A stretch of DNA of 64,000 bases from Candidatus Entotheonellaceae bacterium (GTDB taxonomy: Bacteria; Tectomicrobia; Entotheonellia; Entotheonellales; Entotheonellaceae): assembly GCA_965238075.1 (NCBI GenBank), contig OZ250173.1:683145-747144 (forward strand). The letters run 5' to 3'. Each line of letters opens with the position of its first letter. The first letter of the stretch is position 1. Under the pieces are notes generated by a model, which ran no database searches, had not been told where the DNA came from, and saw only the letters and a list, made by a program, of their open reading frames with translations. This document shows, piece by piece, positions 42,309 through 47,960 of this stretch. The translations under genes and the position numbers were made by a program.

Positions 42309-43516
42309 CACCGCGCCCCATCTACCTCGACCACCACGCCACCACGCCGCTCGACGACGCCGTGCTCGAGGCCATGATGCCGTACCTGACCGACAAGTTC
42401 GGCAACGCCTCCAGCCGCACCCACGCCTACGGCTGGGAGGCCGAGGAAGCCGTGCACCAGGCGCGCGAGCAGGTGGCCTCTCTGATCAACGCCAGGCCGG
42501 AGGAAATCGTCTTCACCAGCGGCGCCACCGAGTCGGACAACCTGGCCCTGAAGGGCATCGCCCGCGCCTACCAGGATCGGGGCAATCACATCATCACCAC
42601 CACCACCGAGCACCGCGCCATCCTGGACGCCTGCCAGGCGCTCGAAGCCGAGGGTTTCGACGTGACCTACGTGCCGGTGGACCGCGGCGGCCTCGTGGAT
42701 CCCGAGGACGTGCGCCGAGCCATCACGCCGCGCACCATCCTGATTTCGGTGATGTACGTCAACGCCGAGATCGGCACCATCGCCCCCCTTGCCGACATCG
42801 GCGCCGTGGCGAGAGAGCACGGCGTGCTGTTTCACAGCGACGCGGTGCAGGGCGTCGGCAAAATCGCCTGCAACGTGGATGACCTGCGTGTCGATCTGAT
42901 GTCCATTTCCGCCCATAAGATATACGGCCCGAAGGGCGTCGGTGCACTGTACGTGCGCAAGACGCACCCAGAGCGGATCCGCCTGCACCCGATGATTGAC
43001 GGCGGCGGACAAGAACGCGGGTTGCGCTCCGGCACCGCCAACGTCCCCGGCATCGTCGGTTTCGGCAAGGCGTGCGAGGTGTGCCAGGCGCAATGGGAGC
43101 CCGAGGCCATCCGCCTGCGCGGCCTGCGGCATCGGCTGCACGAAGGACTGACGGCGCGCATCGACGACATTTATCTCAACGGCCACGCCGAACCCAGGCT
43201 GCCCGGCAACCTGAACGTCAGCTTCGCCTCCGTCCAGGGCGAATCGCTGCTGCTCAGCCTGCAGCACGTCGCGGCGCTGTCGGCGGGCTCGGCGTGCTCG
43301 TCCGGCTCGGACGAACCGTCTTACGTTCTGCGGGCCATCGGCATGGACGACATTCTCGCCAACGCCTCCATCCGCTTCGGCCTCGGGCGCTCCACGACGG
43401 CCGAGGAAATCGACATCGTAGTCGATGCATTGGTGGGAAAAGTGGCGCGGTTGCGCGCGCTGTCACCCATGAGCAAGGGGCAGCCATTCGGATCCGCGCC
43501 GGCTGCTAACCGCTGA
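42305..43516 (+). CDS. iscS: Cysteine desulfurase (IscS/NifS class V aminotransferase)
   Basis: IYLDHHATTPLD...FTSGATESDNLALKG...SISAHKIYGPKG (PLP Lys)...SAGSACSS active-site Cys loop. The ATG overlaps the upstream stop (ATGA). Confidence 0.9.
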   Translation: MTPRPIYLDHHATTPLDDAVLEAMMPYLTDKFGNASSRTHAYGWEAEEAVHQAREQVASLINARPEEIVFTSGATESDNLALKGIARAYQDRGNHIITTTTEHRAILDACQALEAEGFDVTYVPVDRGGLVDPEDVRRAITPRTILISVMYVNAEIGTIAPLADIGAVAREHGVLFHSDAVQGVGKIACNVDDLRVDLMSISAHKIYGPKGVGALYVRKTHPERIRLHPMIDGGGQERGLRSGTANVPGIVGFGKACEVCQAQWEPEAIRLRGLRHRLHEGLTARIDDIYLNGHAEPRLPGNLNVSFASVQGESLLLSLQHVAALSAGSACSSGSDEPSYVLRAIGMDDILANASIRFGLGRSTTAEEIDIVVDALVGKVARLRALSPMSKGQPFGSAPAANR

Positions 43517-43544
43517 TCATTTCATAAATTAGACGCCCGCGGTC

Positions 43545-44459
43545 ATGGCCGACATTTACCAACCTCACGACAGGCTTTTCCGAGCCGTTTTCTCCGACGC
43601 CGGCGAGGCCGCCAGCCTGTTGCAGGCAGCACTGCCCGACACCGTCCGCAACAGCTTCGATTGGAGGACCCTGACCTTGGTCGAGGGCACCTTCATCGAC
43701 GAGGACCTACGCGAAAGCCAGTCCGACCTGCTCTACGAGGTACAGCACACCAGCACCGGACAACCCGTGTCGATGTATATGCTCTTCGAGCACCAGTCGT
43801 CACCCGACCCGTGGATTCGCCTGCGGCTGCTGCGGTATTGCTGCCGCATCTGGGAAGGCGATCTGCGTGGCGGTCCAGACCGGCACGAGTTGCGGCCTAT
43901 CGTGCCGGTGGTATTCTATCAGGGCGAGCGCGGTTGGAATTATTCGACGGAGTTTGCCGATCTGTTTCCCGAAGCCGCACGCTCCTGGCCGTGGGTACCG
44001 CGGTTCACCCACGAACTGATGGACCAGACGACCCTGGAACCCGAGACAGTCACCGGCGGCATCAAGGGCCGCATCGCCCAGTTGCTGATGATGGTCGCGT
44101 TCGGCCGCAACGTGGAAGCGGCACTGGACTGGGCGGCGCGCTGGGCTTTGTCACTGAGCCAGGCCGGCAGCGGGGTCGATGAACTCCGCCGATTCTTCGT
44201 GTACCTGATGGCGACACAGGAGTACGAGGTGATCGAGACGTTCAGGGAGGCGCTCAGACGCCATGGACTCGAGCGAGAAGGAGAGAGCATGACGTATGCG
44301 GAAGAACTCTTGGCGAAAGGGCGGACGGAAGCCCAAGTCGAAGTCGTGGAGGGTTTTTTGCGGGTCGGCGTGACGTGGGAGGTCATCGAGGCCGCCACCG
44401 GGCTGACCGAAGCCGGCTTCCAGGCGCTCAAGGCACAGTTATCAGAGTCTGATTCGTAG
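43545..44459 (+). CDS. Rpn-family recombination-promoting nuclease / putative transposase (YhgA-like PD-(D/E)xK)
   Basis: PHDRLFRAVFSD...ESQSDLLYEVQ...MYMLFEHQSSPDPWIRLRLLRY...PVVFYQGERGW is the PDDEXK_1/Rpn signature. Confidence 0.85.
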   Translation: MADIYQPHDRLFRAVFSDAGEAASLLQAALPDTVRNSFDWRTLTLVEGTFIDEDLRESQSDLLYEVQHTSTGQPVSMYMLFEHQSSPDPWIRLRLLRYCCRIWEGDLRGGPDRHELRPIVPVVFYQGERGWNYSTEFADLFPEAARSWPWVPRFTHELMDQTTLEPETVTGGIKGRIAQLLMMVAFGRNVEAALDWAARWALSLSQAGSGVDELRRFFVYLMATQEYEVIETFREALRRHGLEREGESMTYAEELLAKGRTEAQVEVVEGFLRVGVTWEVIEAATGLTEAGFQALKAQLSESDS

Positions 44460-44729
44460 GCTCTTCAGGATTTAGGCGTCGTCGTAAGGTTTGTACCTGA
44501 AATTACTCTAACGGCATTCATGCTACAGCGGCTTCCGGTTGCGGGCCGCGGCGACGCAGAATCCCTCACCCATGCTCCACTCAGGACCTGACGGCAGCCC
44601 TTTCAGACGGGATTCGCCCTACCGTTTTGAGGCAAGGTCTATGTCGTCATTAGGGGCGAGAATTGTGCGGTGGAGCGCCTACCGCCACCGCGCCAGTCGC
44701 CGACTCTACAAGTCGGGGAGAATGGGGGA

Positions 44730-45140
44730 GTGGAAACGGTTATTGTTTCGCTGCTATCGGGTTTGGTCGGCGCAGTCCTTGCTTCGATCGGCACGCTCCT
44801 TGCGGTGTATCTCAATTCGCGGCTTGAGAAAAAACGCTACCGGCTACAGTGGAAGCGAGACGTTCTCGCCCGATCTGTCGGCTATCGGTACCTCCTTGTG
44901 CCTCCTTGGATATGGAGAAACAGCGGTGAGCCGTACATCGCTCTCAATGAAGCGTTTGTCGCATTTGACGATTCTCCACCCGTGATTGATGCCTTAGAAA
45001 AGTATCGTGTGGATCGAAACAACAACAATCTCGTGACCCTTTTCAAAGCGATGTTCAAATCGTCAGGTGTGCATTTCGATCACTTGAATGACGATTTTAT
45101 CATCCATCCGCTCGGTCCCCCGACCCCGAAGGATGAATGA
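44730..45140 (+). CDS. Small N-terminally membrane-anchored protein, function unknown
   Basis: A GTG start at 44730 gives (M)ETVIVSLLSGLVGAVLASIGTLLAVYL, a TM helix, followed by a ~105-aa soluble part. The stop overlaps the next ATG (ATGA). The longer ORF from 44670 is an alternative. Confidence 0.45.
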   Translation: METVIVSLLSGLVGAVLASIGTLLAVYLNSRLEKKRYRLQWKRDVLARSVGYRYLLVPPWIWRNSGEPYIALNEAFVAFDDSPPVIDALEKYRVDRNNNNLVTLFKAMFKSSGVHFDHLNDDFIIHPLGPPTPKDE

Positions 45141-45796
45141 GGCGACAAAGGGGCTTGGCGGAAGTTGGGAGATTAGGAAGAGTGACGAAGTTCGTCCTGC
45201 TGATGCTTGCTGTTGGGATTGGATCCATACTGTCGATACTGCCGCTATTCGTAGCAGTCATGCCGTCACCTTGGAGAGAAGTGGTCATCCTCGGGATAGT
45301 TGGGATAGCCCTCTCACTAGCGGCGGCCGTGATATCGAGGTGGGGAGAGAAGCGAAGAAAGGCAAAGGAGCTAAAACAACTTCAGATGGAGGCGGAGCGG
45401 CAGGCAGAAGAAGAAAGGAGATTGGAAGAGGCAAAGGTAGTGTGGTGGCAGGATGAAAAGACGAGACGGGAAGGGGAAGAGCGGGAACGAGGGAAGCTGA
45501 AGGAGATAACGGGGCAAAAGCAGGAGGAAAGGGGACCATGGTTATTCGACATCCAACGCCCACGCCCCATCGACGAAAAGCACACTCTGTACGGCTGGCA
45601 AGAAGGCCGGTGCAACGGCTGTGGCGTGCTGTTTCACTTCCGCAACCTGACCCTAGACCACATCACGCCGAGAACCAACGACGGCCCGGACCATATCGAC
45701 AATTTGCAGTTGCTGTGTGGCACCTGCAATTCGCTCAAAGGCGCGGGAACGCATGAAGAATTGCTTGAGAAGCTACGTTCCCAGGGGGTTACCTAA
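45137..45796 (+). CDS. Membrane-anchored HNH endonuclease (2 TM, K/E-rich coiled coil, HNH)
   Basis: TM helices FVLLMLAVGIGSILSILPLFVAV and VVILGIVGIALSLAAAVI. Charged coiled coil KRRKAKELKQLQMEAERQAEEERRLEEAK. HNH motif CNGCG...LTLDHITPRTNDGPDHIDNLQLLCGTCNSLKG. Confidence 0.75.
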   Translation: MRRQRGLAEVGRLGRVTKFVLLMLAVGIGSILSILPLFVAVMPSPWREVVILGIVGIALSLAAAVISRWGEKRRKAKELKQLQMEAERQAEEERRLEEAKVVWWQDEKTRREGEERERGKLKEITGQKQEERGPWLFDIQRPRPIDEKHTLYGWQEGRCNGCGVLFHFRNLTLDHITPRTNDGPDHIDNLQLLCGTCNSLKGAGTHEELLEKLRSQGVT

Positions 45797-45928
45797 TAGT
45801 CCAAATAGGACTTGTTAGAACGCCCCGGATTGGCCACAGACTGCCAGGCTGCCGGATTGCCCCACACAGCCAACGTCGCGCCGCCGACAAGGCCGGGAGG
45901 TAGGGGTCTATTGTGGGAGGGAGGAATC

Positions 45929-46789
45929 ATGACTCAGGAAAACGACAGGCCTTTTTCAGAACGATGCGGATATGTGCGCAAAGCGATGCAAATTGAATCC
46001 ATGGACGCAGCGCTTAAGAACGGCCTGTGGAATGCGTTTCTTCAGCATGTATGGGATCGGTATCCGCTCGGCCGGAACACCCAATATATGGCGAGTTTCT
46101 GTGAGAATCTTTGGCAAGGGCACTTCAAAGAAAGGAGAGACGATTTCAACAAGTTCAAGAACCCCTACAGTCCCGAGCCTGGTTATAACTGGTATTTATG
46201 GCTGAATGCGTTTAGAAGCCGATTTGATGGAAGCGATTGGTATGAAGTTTATGACTTTCTCGAATTTGTAGGGATTCAGTGTCCCCGCATGAGTTCAGGC
46301 CCCTTCATGGAAGCGTGCAACGTAACGCTCGAACGCGAACGAGCCGCATACAGGTTTGTGGGTGGGCGCATTGCGCCCATTACAAACGACCTGGAGATTG
46401 AAACAATTGACTCTGCCATAGAGGAGAGAGAGGGGCCTGCTGTCCATATACGCAATGCCTTGGAAAAGCTTTCCGACCGAAAGACACCTGATTACAGAAA
46501 CTCAATCAAAGAGTCCATTTCTGCTGTTGAAAGTCAGGCTCGGATAACTATGAGGGATGAAACAGCAACTTTAGGGGTACTTCTCACCAGCTTGCAAAGG
46601 GAGCGTGGGTTGCCTGCGCCACTTAAAAAAGCCTTTTCCACGCTCTATGGATATACGTCAGGTCCAAGCGGAATACGGCACGGCCTTGTGTCTGAAGGAA
46701 CGGAGGTGGGTTTCGACTTGGCCAAATTCATGCTGGTTGCTTGTTCTGCCTTCGTGAACTTTATTGCAGCCAGTGCAGAGGAAACCTGA
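45929..46789 (+). CDS. AbiJ-NTD4 / HEPN-like abortive-infection-type protein
   Basis: Start at the ATG at 45929, after GGGAGGGAGGA. The N-terminus PFSERCGYVRKAMQIESMDAALKNGLWNAF matches my recollection of AbiJ N-terminal domain 4. The C-terminus NSIKESISAVESQAR...LYGYTSGPSGIRHGL...AKFMLVACSAFVNFI matches the AbiJ-type HEPN region. Confidence 0.7.
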   Translation: MTQENDRPFSERCGYVRKAMQIESMDAALKNGLWNAFLQHVWDRYPLGRNTQYMASFCENLWQGHFKERRDDFNKFKNPYSPEPGYNWYLWLNAFRSRFDGSDWYEVYDFLEFVGIQCPRMSSGPFMEACNVTLERERAAYRFVGGRIAPITNDLEIETIDSAIEEREGPAVHIRNALEKLSDRKTPDYRNSIKESISAVESQARITMRDETATLGVLLTSLQRERGLPAPLKKAFSTLYGYTSGPSGIRHGLVSEGTEVGFDLAKFMLVACSAFVNFIAASAEET

Positions 46790-47162
46790 TGCAACCCAAC
46801 TGGCAGAACCGCACGATGTGGACAGGCGACAACCTGGACATCATGCGCGGCATGAACGCCGAGTCCATTGATCTAATCTACCTCGCCCCGCCCTTCAACT
46901 CGAACCGCAACTACGCCGCGCCCATCGGCTCGGAAGCGGCCGGCGGCGCCTTCAAGGACACCTGCACGCTGAGCGACGTGGACGAAGCGTGGCACGGCAG
47001 GGGCATGAGGTCCTACCTCATCAGGATGTCCATGCGCCTCCTGGAGATGCGCCGCCTGCTTCAAGCCCATCGGCTCCCTCTACCTGCATTGAGACCCCAC
47101 CGCCAGCCATTACCTCAAGATGCTAATGGATGCGGTGTTCGGGAAGGAAGGATCATAGCACC
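46789..47162 (+). pseudogene. N6/N4 DNA methyltransferase (PF01555-type) remnant: motif IV mutated, internal deletion, in-frame stop, 3'-truncated
   Basis: MWTGDNLDIMRGMNAESIDLIYLAPPFNSNRNY has APPF where DPPF/Y is expected. AWHG joins directly to GMRSYLIRMSMRLLEMRRLL. In the next frame, KPIGSLYLH-stop-DPTASHYLKMLMDAVFGKE has TGA where Cys is expected. The remnant ends at thiD. Its ATG overlaps the abiJ-like stop (TGATG). Confidence 0.7.
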
Positions 47163-47960
47163 ATGGTAGCCACGGCCCTCACCATCGCCGGCTCGGATTC
47201 CGGCGGCGGCGCCGGTATCCAGGCCGACCTGAAGACCTTTGCGGCCCTCGGCGTGTACGGCACCAGTGCCATCACGGCCATTACGGCGCAGAATACCTGC
47301 GGCGTTGACGCCGTGCAGGCCATTGATGCCGACGTCGTGGCGGCCCAGATTCGCACCGTGGCGTCCGACATTCCCATCGGCGCCGCCAAGACCGGCATGC
47401 TGTTTTCAACCGATATAATTCGAGCAGTGGCTGCCGCCGTTCGGGCCGCCAACCTGCCGTTTCTGGTGGTGGACCCCGTGATGGTTGCCACCAGCGGCGA
47501 CCGCCTGCTGCAGCCCGACGCCGAGGCCAGCTTGCAAAACGAGGTCATCCCCTTGGCCACCGTCGTGACCCCCAACTTGGCGGAGGCGGGGGTATTGACC
47601 GGTACCAAGGTGCATACGCTCGACGATATGCGCGCCGCCGCCGAGCATCTGGTTGCGCACGGCGCCGCCGCCGTGGTGGTGAAGGGCGGACACGCCATCA
47701 CCAAGGCGACGGACGTGTTTTACGACGGCAACCGCATGGACTTGCTGGAGAGCGTGGTCGTTGACACCACGAGCACCCACGGCACCGGCTGCACCTTTTC
47801 CGCCGCCATTTGCGCCTATCTGGCGCGCGGCGCCACACTTCTGGAGGCCGTGCGCCGCGCCAAGGCCTATCTCACCGGCGCCCTGCAAAACGCCGATCCG
47901 ATCGGGCAGGGCAACGGGCCGGTCGGGCATTTCTGGAACGTCACCCATGCCGCGGATTAG
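47163..47960 (+). CDS. thiD: Hydroxymethylpyrimidine/phosphomethylpyrimidine kinase
   Basis: ALTIAGSDSGGGAGIQADLKTF...VVDPVMVATSGDRLL...THGTGCTFSAAI. Confidence 0.9.
   Translation: MVATALTIAGSDSGGGAGIQADLKTFAALGVYGTSAITAITAQNTCGVDAVQAIDADVVAAQIRTVASDIPIGAAKTGMLFSTDIIRAVAAAVRAANLPFLVVDPVMVATSGDRLLQPDAEASLQNEVIPLATVVTPNLAEAGVLTGTKVHTLDDMRAAAEHLVAHGAAAVVVKGGHAITKATDVFYDGNRMDLLESVVVDTTSTHGTGCTFSAAICAYLARGATLLEAVRRAKAYLTGALQNADPIGQGNGPVGHFWNVTHAAD

Follow-up and report, generated by a model that had tools for sequence, protein, structure and literature searches.

SNIPE (PD-lambda-1) of E. coli is a GIY-YIG nuclease that is anchored by a transmembrane (TM) segment and cuts phage DNA during injection (PMC13190303). 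Without its anchor the protein is toxic and nucleoid-bound, and its spatial self/non-self logic has been shown by experiment (PMC13190303). SNIPE homologues carry one or two TM helices and have highly variable N-terminal regions (PMC13190303). SNIPE is a single-protein effector and is found in defence islands. The locus described here is a pair of overlapping genes from a Candidatus Entotheonellaceae bacterium, located in a 64,000-nucleotide stretch of contig OZ250173.1 (assembly GCA_965238075.1, positions 683,145 to 747,144), hereafter the window; coordinates are window positions unless another locus is named. Gene 1 (44730..45140, forward strand) encodes a small single-pass membrane protein and gene 2 (45137..45796, forward strand) encodes a protein with two TM helices, a charged helix and an HNH nuclease domain. 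A preliminary description of the window had treated the membrane-tethered nuclease as an unnamed concept, which does not hold, as SNIPE works in this way with unrelated domains (PMC13190303).

On its predicted topology the gene 2 product would have the layout of SNIPE, with an N-terminal membrane anchor, an elongated cytoplasmic middle and a C-terminal nuclease on the cytoplasmic side. Their parts differ. The SNIPE nuclease is of the GIY-YIG type (T5orf172) whereas the gene 2 product matched only HNH families, and the SNIPE middle is DUF4041 whereas that of gene 2 is a low-complexity E/R/K helix with no Pfam match. Searches of the gene 2 product against the SNIPE families of Pfam and PADLOC (PD-lambda-1) gave no match. 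In gene 2 the N-terminal scaffold is conserved and the nuclease variable, the reverse of SNIPE, and gene 2 also differs in having a co-transcribed small membrane partner. SNIPE is the likeliest working analogue of the gene 2 product, alike in design and not a homologue.

It is possible, and is proposed here tentatively, that gene 2 encodes a membrane-tethered cytoplasmic nuclease that acts against incoming DNA, with gene 1, a DUF6680 protein, as an accessory. In this mechanism a two-helix hairpin (N-in, C-in) would anchor the gene 2 product in the inner membrane, and a roughly 64-residue E/R/K-rich stalk, about 9-10 nm if fully helical, would carry the HNH DNase at its end in the cytoplasm. 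The tether would hold the nuclease at the membrane, off the nucleoid, and the enzyme would therefore preferentially cut DNA that enters through the envelope, be it phage or another mobile element. The gene 1 product would cross the membrane once and place a four-helix domain in the cytoplasm.

Other described systems were also compared with the pair. Rst_2TM_1TM_TIR, Zorya type II and Septu are defence systems of several genes in which membrane proteins or an HNH nuclease take part, and in Zorya a long coiled-coil tail is anchored in the membrane. Matches of gene 2 to the HNH protein PtuB of Septu were marginal (E 9e-4 to 7e-2) and covered the HNH motif only, and no PtuA ATPase gene was adjacent to the pair. 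For Zorya type II (ZorE HNH) there were no ZorAB/MotAB-like genes nearby and no PADLOC match; for Rst_2TM_1TM_TIR there was no TIR domain and no PADLOC match for either protein. The small protein gave no match to any PADLOC family. The pair corresponds to no named defence system, as had been supposed, with PADLOC returning only weak HNH-motif matches. N6/N4 DNA methyltransferase-HNH fusions (PF01555 + PF01844; P0006, P0018) have C-terminal ~80 residues homologous to gene 2 but differ in the remainder, as gene 2 has a 2TM-stalk N-terminus and no PF01555 match in its 219 aa. PDC-S11 was matched by the scaffold protein of a related locus (L005) and PDC-S32 by a neighbouring gene in the window; neither was matched by the pair itself. 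Both families are computational candidates. By these two matches, scaffold and island fall among the candidates for a defence role.

Gene 2 (ATG start, TAA stop, 219 aa) was divided into a K/R-rich N-tail (45137-45190), a TM hairpin (45191-45340), an E/R/K-rich helix (45341-45535), a linker (45536-45571) and an HNH domain (45572-45793). The two TM helices noted earlier were recovered as two hydrophobic segments (residues 19-37 and 49-67) with the short neutral loop MPSPWRE between them, predicted to face outwards, and with SRWGEKRRKAKELK, predicted to be cytoplasmic, immediately after the second helix. The N-tail has 4 K/R among its last 15 residues, and by the positive-inside rule the product is predicted to be N-in/C-in with a cytoplasmic HNH domain. 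A periplasmic HNH domain had been named in the preliminary description as an argument against a defence role; the predicted side is the cytoplasmic one. Residues 70-133 (64 residues) are 56% E/R/K, with 12 i/i+4 opposite-charge pairs and 39% hydrophobic a/d positions in the best register. The charged helix of ~70 residues described earlier is present as a 64-residue E/R/K-rich helix; on the a/d positions and charge pairs, an ER/K single alpha-helix may be at least as fitting a reading as a coiled coil.

The HNH assignment was upheld by PF01844 at 45.5 bits (cut-off 21.4, E=8e-12) and by HNH_5 at 33.9 bits (cut-off 27.5, E=3e-8). The CCCC zinc site is complete (C159, C162, C194, C197), the catalytic/metal residues D174-H175, N189 and N198 are all kept, and alignments were obtained to the HNH domains in a Cas9 structure (8d2k) and in 4h9d. 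It is predicted to be a catalytically intact beta-beta-alpha-metal DNase. A holin was rejected as an identity for the gene 2 product, the sole support being a sub-threshold Phage_holin_3_6 match (E=0.07) with no phage genes nearby. Among 2.9 million viral contigs the HNH protein had no relative and DUF6680 had a single one, and a phage origin was rejected on this near-absence.

The 2TM-stalk module is about 135 residues long, and about 8 metagenomic loci carry it independently of one another. Homologues of the gene 2 N-module were found in P0004, P0177, P0180 and a 432-aa protein of L005. A full-length homologue, P0003 (53% identity), carries the same type of HNH domain as the window (type A) and lies in an unrelated genomic context. 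The module is combined with a zinc-ribbon and an HNH domain of a second type (type B) in P0004, L006, L007 and L035, and in L005 with a C-terminal ~300-residue domain that matched PADLOC PDC-S11 (E=8e-29) and gave a weak PD-(D/E)XK signal. Three different C-termini are therefore carried on one N-terminal module (HNH A, zinc-ribbon HNH B and PDC-S11-like), which by these alignments is a scaffold with swapped nuclease-type effectors. Exchange of nuclease-type effectors on a conserved anchor is typical of how conflict systems evolve. The ratio of nonsynonymous to synonymous substitution (dN/dS) between gene 2 and P0003 was 0.25 for the HNH domain, 0.58 for the stalk and 0.68 for the TM part; purifying selection acts on the HNH domain and the TM and stalk regions are evolving fast. 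Since P0003, with 53% identity and in unrelated surroundings, retains the arrangement at an HNH dN/dS of 0.25, the 2TM-HNH fusion is judged to be old and maintained.

Two further observations were made on the scaffold loci. At L035:5001-6135, on a 3.3-Mb contig with 129x coverage, the 2TM-stalk (177 aa) and the zinc-ribbon-HNH part (208 aa) are encoded by two open reading frames (ORFs) that overlap, either through a real frameshift (pseudogene) or as a split gene. In three loci (L002:935-1309, L007:2117-2257, L035:4092-4277) the scaffold gene is preceded by a ~124-aa protein that has a single TM helix and a coiled coil, and this protein occurs also in scaffold loci without DUF6680.

The two same-strand ORFs overlap as reported earlier, the stop of gene 1 (GTG start, TGA stop, 136 aa) and the ATG of gene 2 sharing the ATGA at 45137-45140. 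Gene 2 has alternative in-frame starts at TTG 45155 and GTG 45182, and public gene callers chose GTG 45182 (P0001). The homologues P0004 and P0177 open with MGTF[L/I]GRV[A/T]KF, which aligns upstream of GTG 45182, and for this reason the start of gene 2 is likely at or near ATG 45137. Whichever start applies, no more than 42 nt separate the two genes. Homologues of both ORFs were found at E 1e-40 to 1e-73, both have dN/dS <1 and both are covered by metatranscriptome contigs; they are real genes. Four strains or samples share one and the same gene 2 sequence. The HNH gene is called shorter in L009 and L011, where only the start differs and the DNA is identical or nearly so, and a broken HNH gene at these loci was rejected on this ground.

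Run labels indicate a sponge metagenome. Single metatranscriptome contigs span both genes (44684-45671/45720, four assemblies). In two of the four assemblies the contigs reach 44684-46925, covering the downstream AbiJ-like gene and the start of a methyltransferase relic. This fits a single transcript.

The gene 1 product has a TM helix at about 44739-44810 (residues 8-26 hydrophobic) followed by a helical domain at 44811-45137, in agreement with the single N-terminal TM helix and soluble domain first described. Its seven-residue N-tail is without K/R and a K/R-rich stretch follows the TM helix; across 75 family members the mean K/R count was 0.3 before the helix versus 3.9 after it. From these counts the product is predicted to be N-out/C-in, which would place the soluble domains of both gene products on the cytoplasmic side. 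A word-indexed search returned only six close relatives (62-100% identity; close homologues at 62-88%), and pattern scans with the alignment of the close small proteins found no relatives in GTDB genomes or JGI metagenomes. An exhaustive profile search of 1.84 billion cluster representatives with gene 1 and its close relatives gave 366 matches at E<=1e-3, 140 of them reaching E<=1e-10; almost without exception they measure 125-145 aa and have the architecture of gene 1. Thirty of 79 of these profile matches were recognised by Pfam DUF6680 (PF20385; best E=1.5e-9).

The gene 1 product is accordingly placed in DUF6680 as a divergent member, by a link that is transitive through the profile search, and is not without a family as had been thought. 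The product and DUF6680 are alike in length (~135 aa), in the N-terminal TM helix and in the motifs KRDVLRR (KRDVLxR), GEP[FY][IV]ALNE, VVF (V[VA]F), LxxLIKAM (LxxLxKAM) and PFxP. They differ in that the PF20385 model misses the gene 1 product, which gave no direct Pfam match at E<=0.1. An AlphaFold2 model built from a 79-sequence alignment (predicted local distance difference test, pLDDT, 94.3; predicted template-modelling score, pTM, 0.81) has a long TM-plus-juxtamembrane helix (residues 2-51) and then a compact bundle of short helices; it supersedes an earlier model from a 6-sequence alignment (pLDDT 61). Foldseek searches of PDB and BFVD with the model gave no match better than E=0.6, and a search of the literature collection consulted found no paper mentioning DUF6680. 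DUF6680 comprises hundreds of sequence clusters in many phyla, and the relatives come from Poribacteria, SAR202/Dehalococcoidia, Binatia, Nitrospinota and Vicinamibacteria. These lineages are typical of sponges and sediments. The small protein evolves fast, with dN/dS of 0.34-0.72 over the comparisons made. Between the window and L005 its dN was 0.136 and dN/dS 0.72; the flanking iscS-like and thiD genes gave a dN of ~0.03 and dN/dS of 0.09-0.15.

DUF6680 lies directly upstream of the scaffold gene in four of the eight independent loci (window type, L005, L006, L007), with 62-77% identity between the small proteins and differing effectors downstream. In the window, L005 and L007 the two genes overlap or lie close together; in L006 there is a gap of 437 nt between them. 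Conservation of the two genes as neighbours, which the preliminary description had made a test of the pair, therefore holds for these four loci and fails for the other four scaffold loci and for all 23 wider DUF6680 loci. Because only four of eight and none of 23 show pairing, the association is read as real, lineage-specific and facultative, and not as an obligate two-gene unit. In this lineage the two genes are probably translationally coupled. Gene 1 is most likely a facultative accessory, and not an obligate subunit, that would serve as regulator or inhibitor of the nuclease or as a membrane sensor or adaptor; its product may interact physically with that of gene 2.

As a defence module the pair is plausible, and that reading is strengthened by the effector swapping and the island context. 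Several points weigh on the other side. The topology of the gene 2 product is a rule-based prediction only. The gene 2 product has no counterpart of the DNA- and tape-measure-binding DUF4041 of SNIPE, and therefore no evident targeting or auto-inhibition module. The scaffold is very rare, with about 8 matches among 5.8 billion proteins, and appears to be confined to one uncultured, probably sponge-associated bacterial group. DUF6680 is missing from four of the eight scaffold loci (L002, L003, L035, L036), none of the 23 wider DUF6680 loci from GTDB genomes carries the scaffold nuclease, and many of these wider genes sit among housekeeping genes. The metatranscriptome contigs carry no strand information and may contain DNA.

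If the tethered-nuclease proposal is true, it would offer a first lead to the function of DUF6680. A functional system would be a second, independently evolved case of spatial self/non-self discrimination, built from parts unlike those of SNIPE and with a minimal charged-helix stalk; if it is not functional, the locus is ordinary defence-island debris of an uncultured symbiont. The small scaffold (about 135 residues) would be convenient for testing the effects of tether length and anchoring on nuclease autoimmunity. A bolder claim is that the 2TM-ER/K-stalk proteins form an undescribed effector-swappable membrane nuclease family (HNH, zinc-ribbon HNH, PDC-S11-type) that arose independently of SNIPE and would destroy incoming DNA on the inner side of the membrane, with DUF6680 as its membrane-resident sensor or regulator. 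This claim, by which DUF6680 would gain its first functional assignment, is considered doubtful.

The absence of pairing outside the four loci is also what would be seen if the pair were two unrelated single-gene modules in a recombination hot spot, with DUF6680 having its own membrane function and the overlap being incidental packing. The wider DUF6680 genes without a scaffold nuclease (23 of 23) are mostly singletons with low G+C at third codon positions (GC3), some beside tRNA-like sequence, and half of the scaffold loci lack DUF6680. When the window is compared with L005, nucleotide similarity is lost more or less at the DUF6680 stop and returns at thiD, so that the whole downstream gene has been replaced, and the gap in L006 points the same way. 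Against this, adjacency has been kept over four loci despite 62-77% small-protein identity and differing effectors, which would not be expected of chance neighbours, and the genes are tight or overlapping in three of them and co-transcribed. Independent modules are regarded as unlikely, though with a weight that is not negligible.

The same overlap can be read as a toxin-antitoxin or abortive-infection pair, in which a membrane-sequestered HNH toxin would be controlled by DUF6680 as antitoxin or regulator, and infection would free the nuclease to destroy host and phage DNA. The order seen here, in which the small gene comes first and overlaps the next by 4 nt, is classic for antitoxin and toxin; the soluble parts of the two proteins are predicted to share the cytoplasmic side, and the small protein is fast-evolving (dN/dS 0.34-0.72). 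The neighbours, Rpn and an AbiJ-domain protein, are of abortive-infection and toxin-antitoxin type, and a second DUF6680 stop overlaps a downstream gene in L034. However, of the four scaffold loci without DUF6680 two are degraded (L035 split, L036 interrupted by an insertion sequence, IS) and two, L002 and L003, carry intact nuclease genes; a lethal toxin would be intolerable there unless the tether by itself rendered it harmless. The majority of DUF6680 genes, moreover, are singletons without a nuclease partner. A toxin-antitoxin pair is considered unlikely.

Compared with the tethered nuclease, a decaying chimera would require gene 2 to be a functionless by-product whose HNH end was captured from a methyltransferase-HNH gene. 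Residues ~135-219 of gene 2 (linker and HNH) have as their closest relatives the C-termini of N6/N4 methyltransferase-HNH fusions, at 45-60% identity over ~75-83 residues and up to about 70% over shorter stretches (50-70% for the closest HNH relatives). The N-terminal 117 methyltransferase residues persist as a frameshifted relic 1 kb downstream, and the related loci L035 and L036 are broken. The ORF is nevertheless intact with a complete active site, the gene is transcribed and identical in four strains or samples, and the P0003 fusion persists at 53% identity in its unrelated context with an HNH dN/dS of 0.25, which together make decay very unlikely. A polymorphic toxin for inter-bacterial competition would match the pattern of a conserved N-module with interchangeable C-terminal nuclease toxins, and is highly improbable given the predicted cytoplasmic C-terminus, the lack of any secretion- or delivery-associated domain or neighbour, and the lack of a consistent downstream immunity gene (AbiJ-like in the window, an unrelated 128-aa ORF in L002, thiD in L005).

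The pair belongs to an island of low G+C (50-55% versus ~65% in the surroundings) with housekeeping genes on either side, one for an iscS-like cysteine desulfurase and the other thiD. Its order is Rpn/YhgA, the gene pair, an AbiJ_NTD4/PDC-S32 gene and a methyltransferase relic; by this content the setting is a small defence island. The Rpn/YhgA-like recombination-promoting nuclease gene (PF04754; 43545..44459, forward strand) was identified by Pfam (E=7e-45) and as NCBIfam Rpn family. Rpn proteins are anti-phage toxins with intragenic antitoxins (PMC10327210). Rpn occupies the equivalent position in L005, L008-L011 and L036. Its synonymous divergence (dS) between the window and L005 (L005:4962-5873) was 0.057, against 0.25-0.29 for the flanking iscS-like and thiD genes, which suggests recent exchange of Rpn between lineages.

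The AbiJ_NTD4-domain gene (45929..46789, forward strand; PF18863 E=4e-28, PADLOC PDC-S32 E=3e-88) is absent from L005, L006 and L007 and is not part of the pair. Its protein is ~79% identical (dN/dS 0.56) to the allele of L008-L011, where the small gene and the HNH gene hardly differ from those of the window. This suggests allele replacement of, or diversifying selection on, the AbiJ_NTD4 gene alone.

The frameshifted methyltransferase-HNH relic (46852..47149, forward strand) was located by tblastn with P0018 and P0006 and abuts thiD, as a methyltransferase relic also does in L036. What it retains of an N6/N4 DNA methyltransferase-HNH fusion is the N-terminal part (~117 residues), and an ORF at 46741-47169 gave PADLOC MTase_II and NCBIfam matches. 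The ends of the methyltransferase-HNH gene are permuted at this site, with the C-terminal ~80 residues at 45542-45790 and the N-terminal relic 1 kb downstream; the methyltransferase catalytic core is missing. The syntenic site of L005 carries Rpn, DUF6680 and the 2TM-PDC-S11-like gene and then passes straight to thiD, and that of L036 carries a NERD/UvrD helicase, Rpn, the IS-interrupted 2TM-HNH gene and the methyltransferase relic.

Some of the wider DUF6680 loci have defence neighbours, namely a type II restriction-modification system, AbiEi, methyltransferases and PDC candidates. In Bdellovibrionales (L030:3980-6378) two DUF6680 genes flank an Rpn/YhgA-like gene, echoing the Rpn-DUF6680 adjacency of the window clade. 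In Gemmatimonadota (L034:3983-5385) the DUF6680 stop overlaps the start of a 331-aa gene, for which no Pfam, PADLOC, NCBIfam or PDB match was found. PDB sequence searches with neighbour proteins of L005, L034 and L018 gave nothing useful and NCBIfam gave no neighbour match.

A search of the island and the leader of gene 1 for tRNA and Rfam families found none. A sigma-70 promoter scan of 43400-47300 returned 0 promoters, and a terminator scan of the same interval returned 2 terminator-like sites, both inside Rpn and below shuffle expectation. The 5' leader of gene 1 contains a piece of ~37 nt (44677..44717, forward strand) with the hairpin CCGACT-CTACA-AGTCGG, which is single copy within the window. 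Many metatranscriptome contigs break at this piece (44677-44717), and in four metatranscriptome contig sets its word depth was 540-940x versus 11-20x in the flanks.

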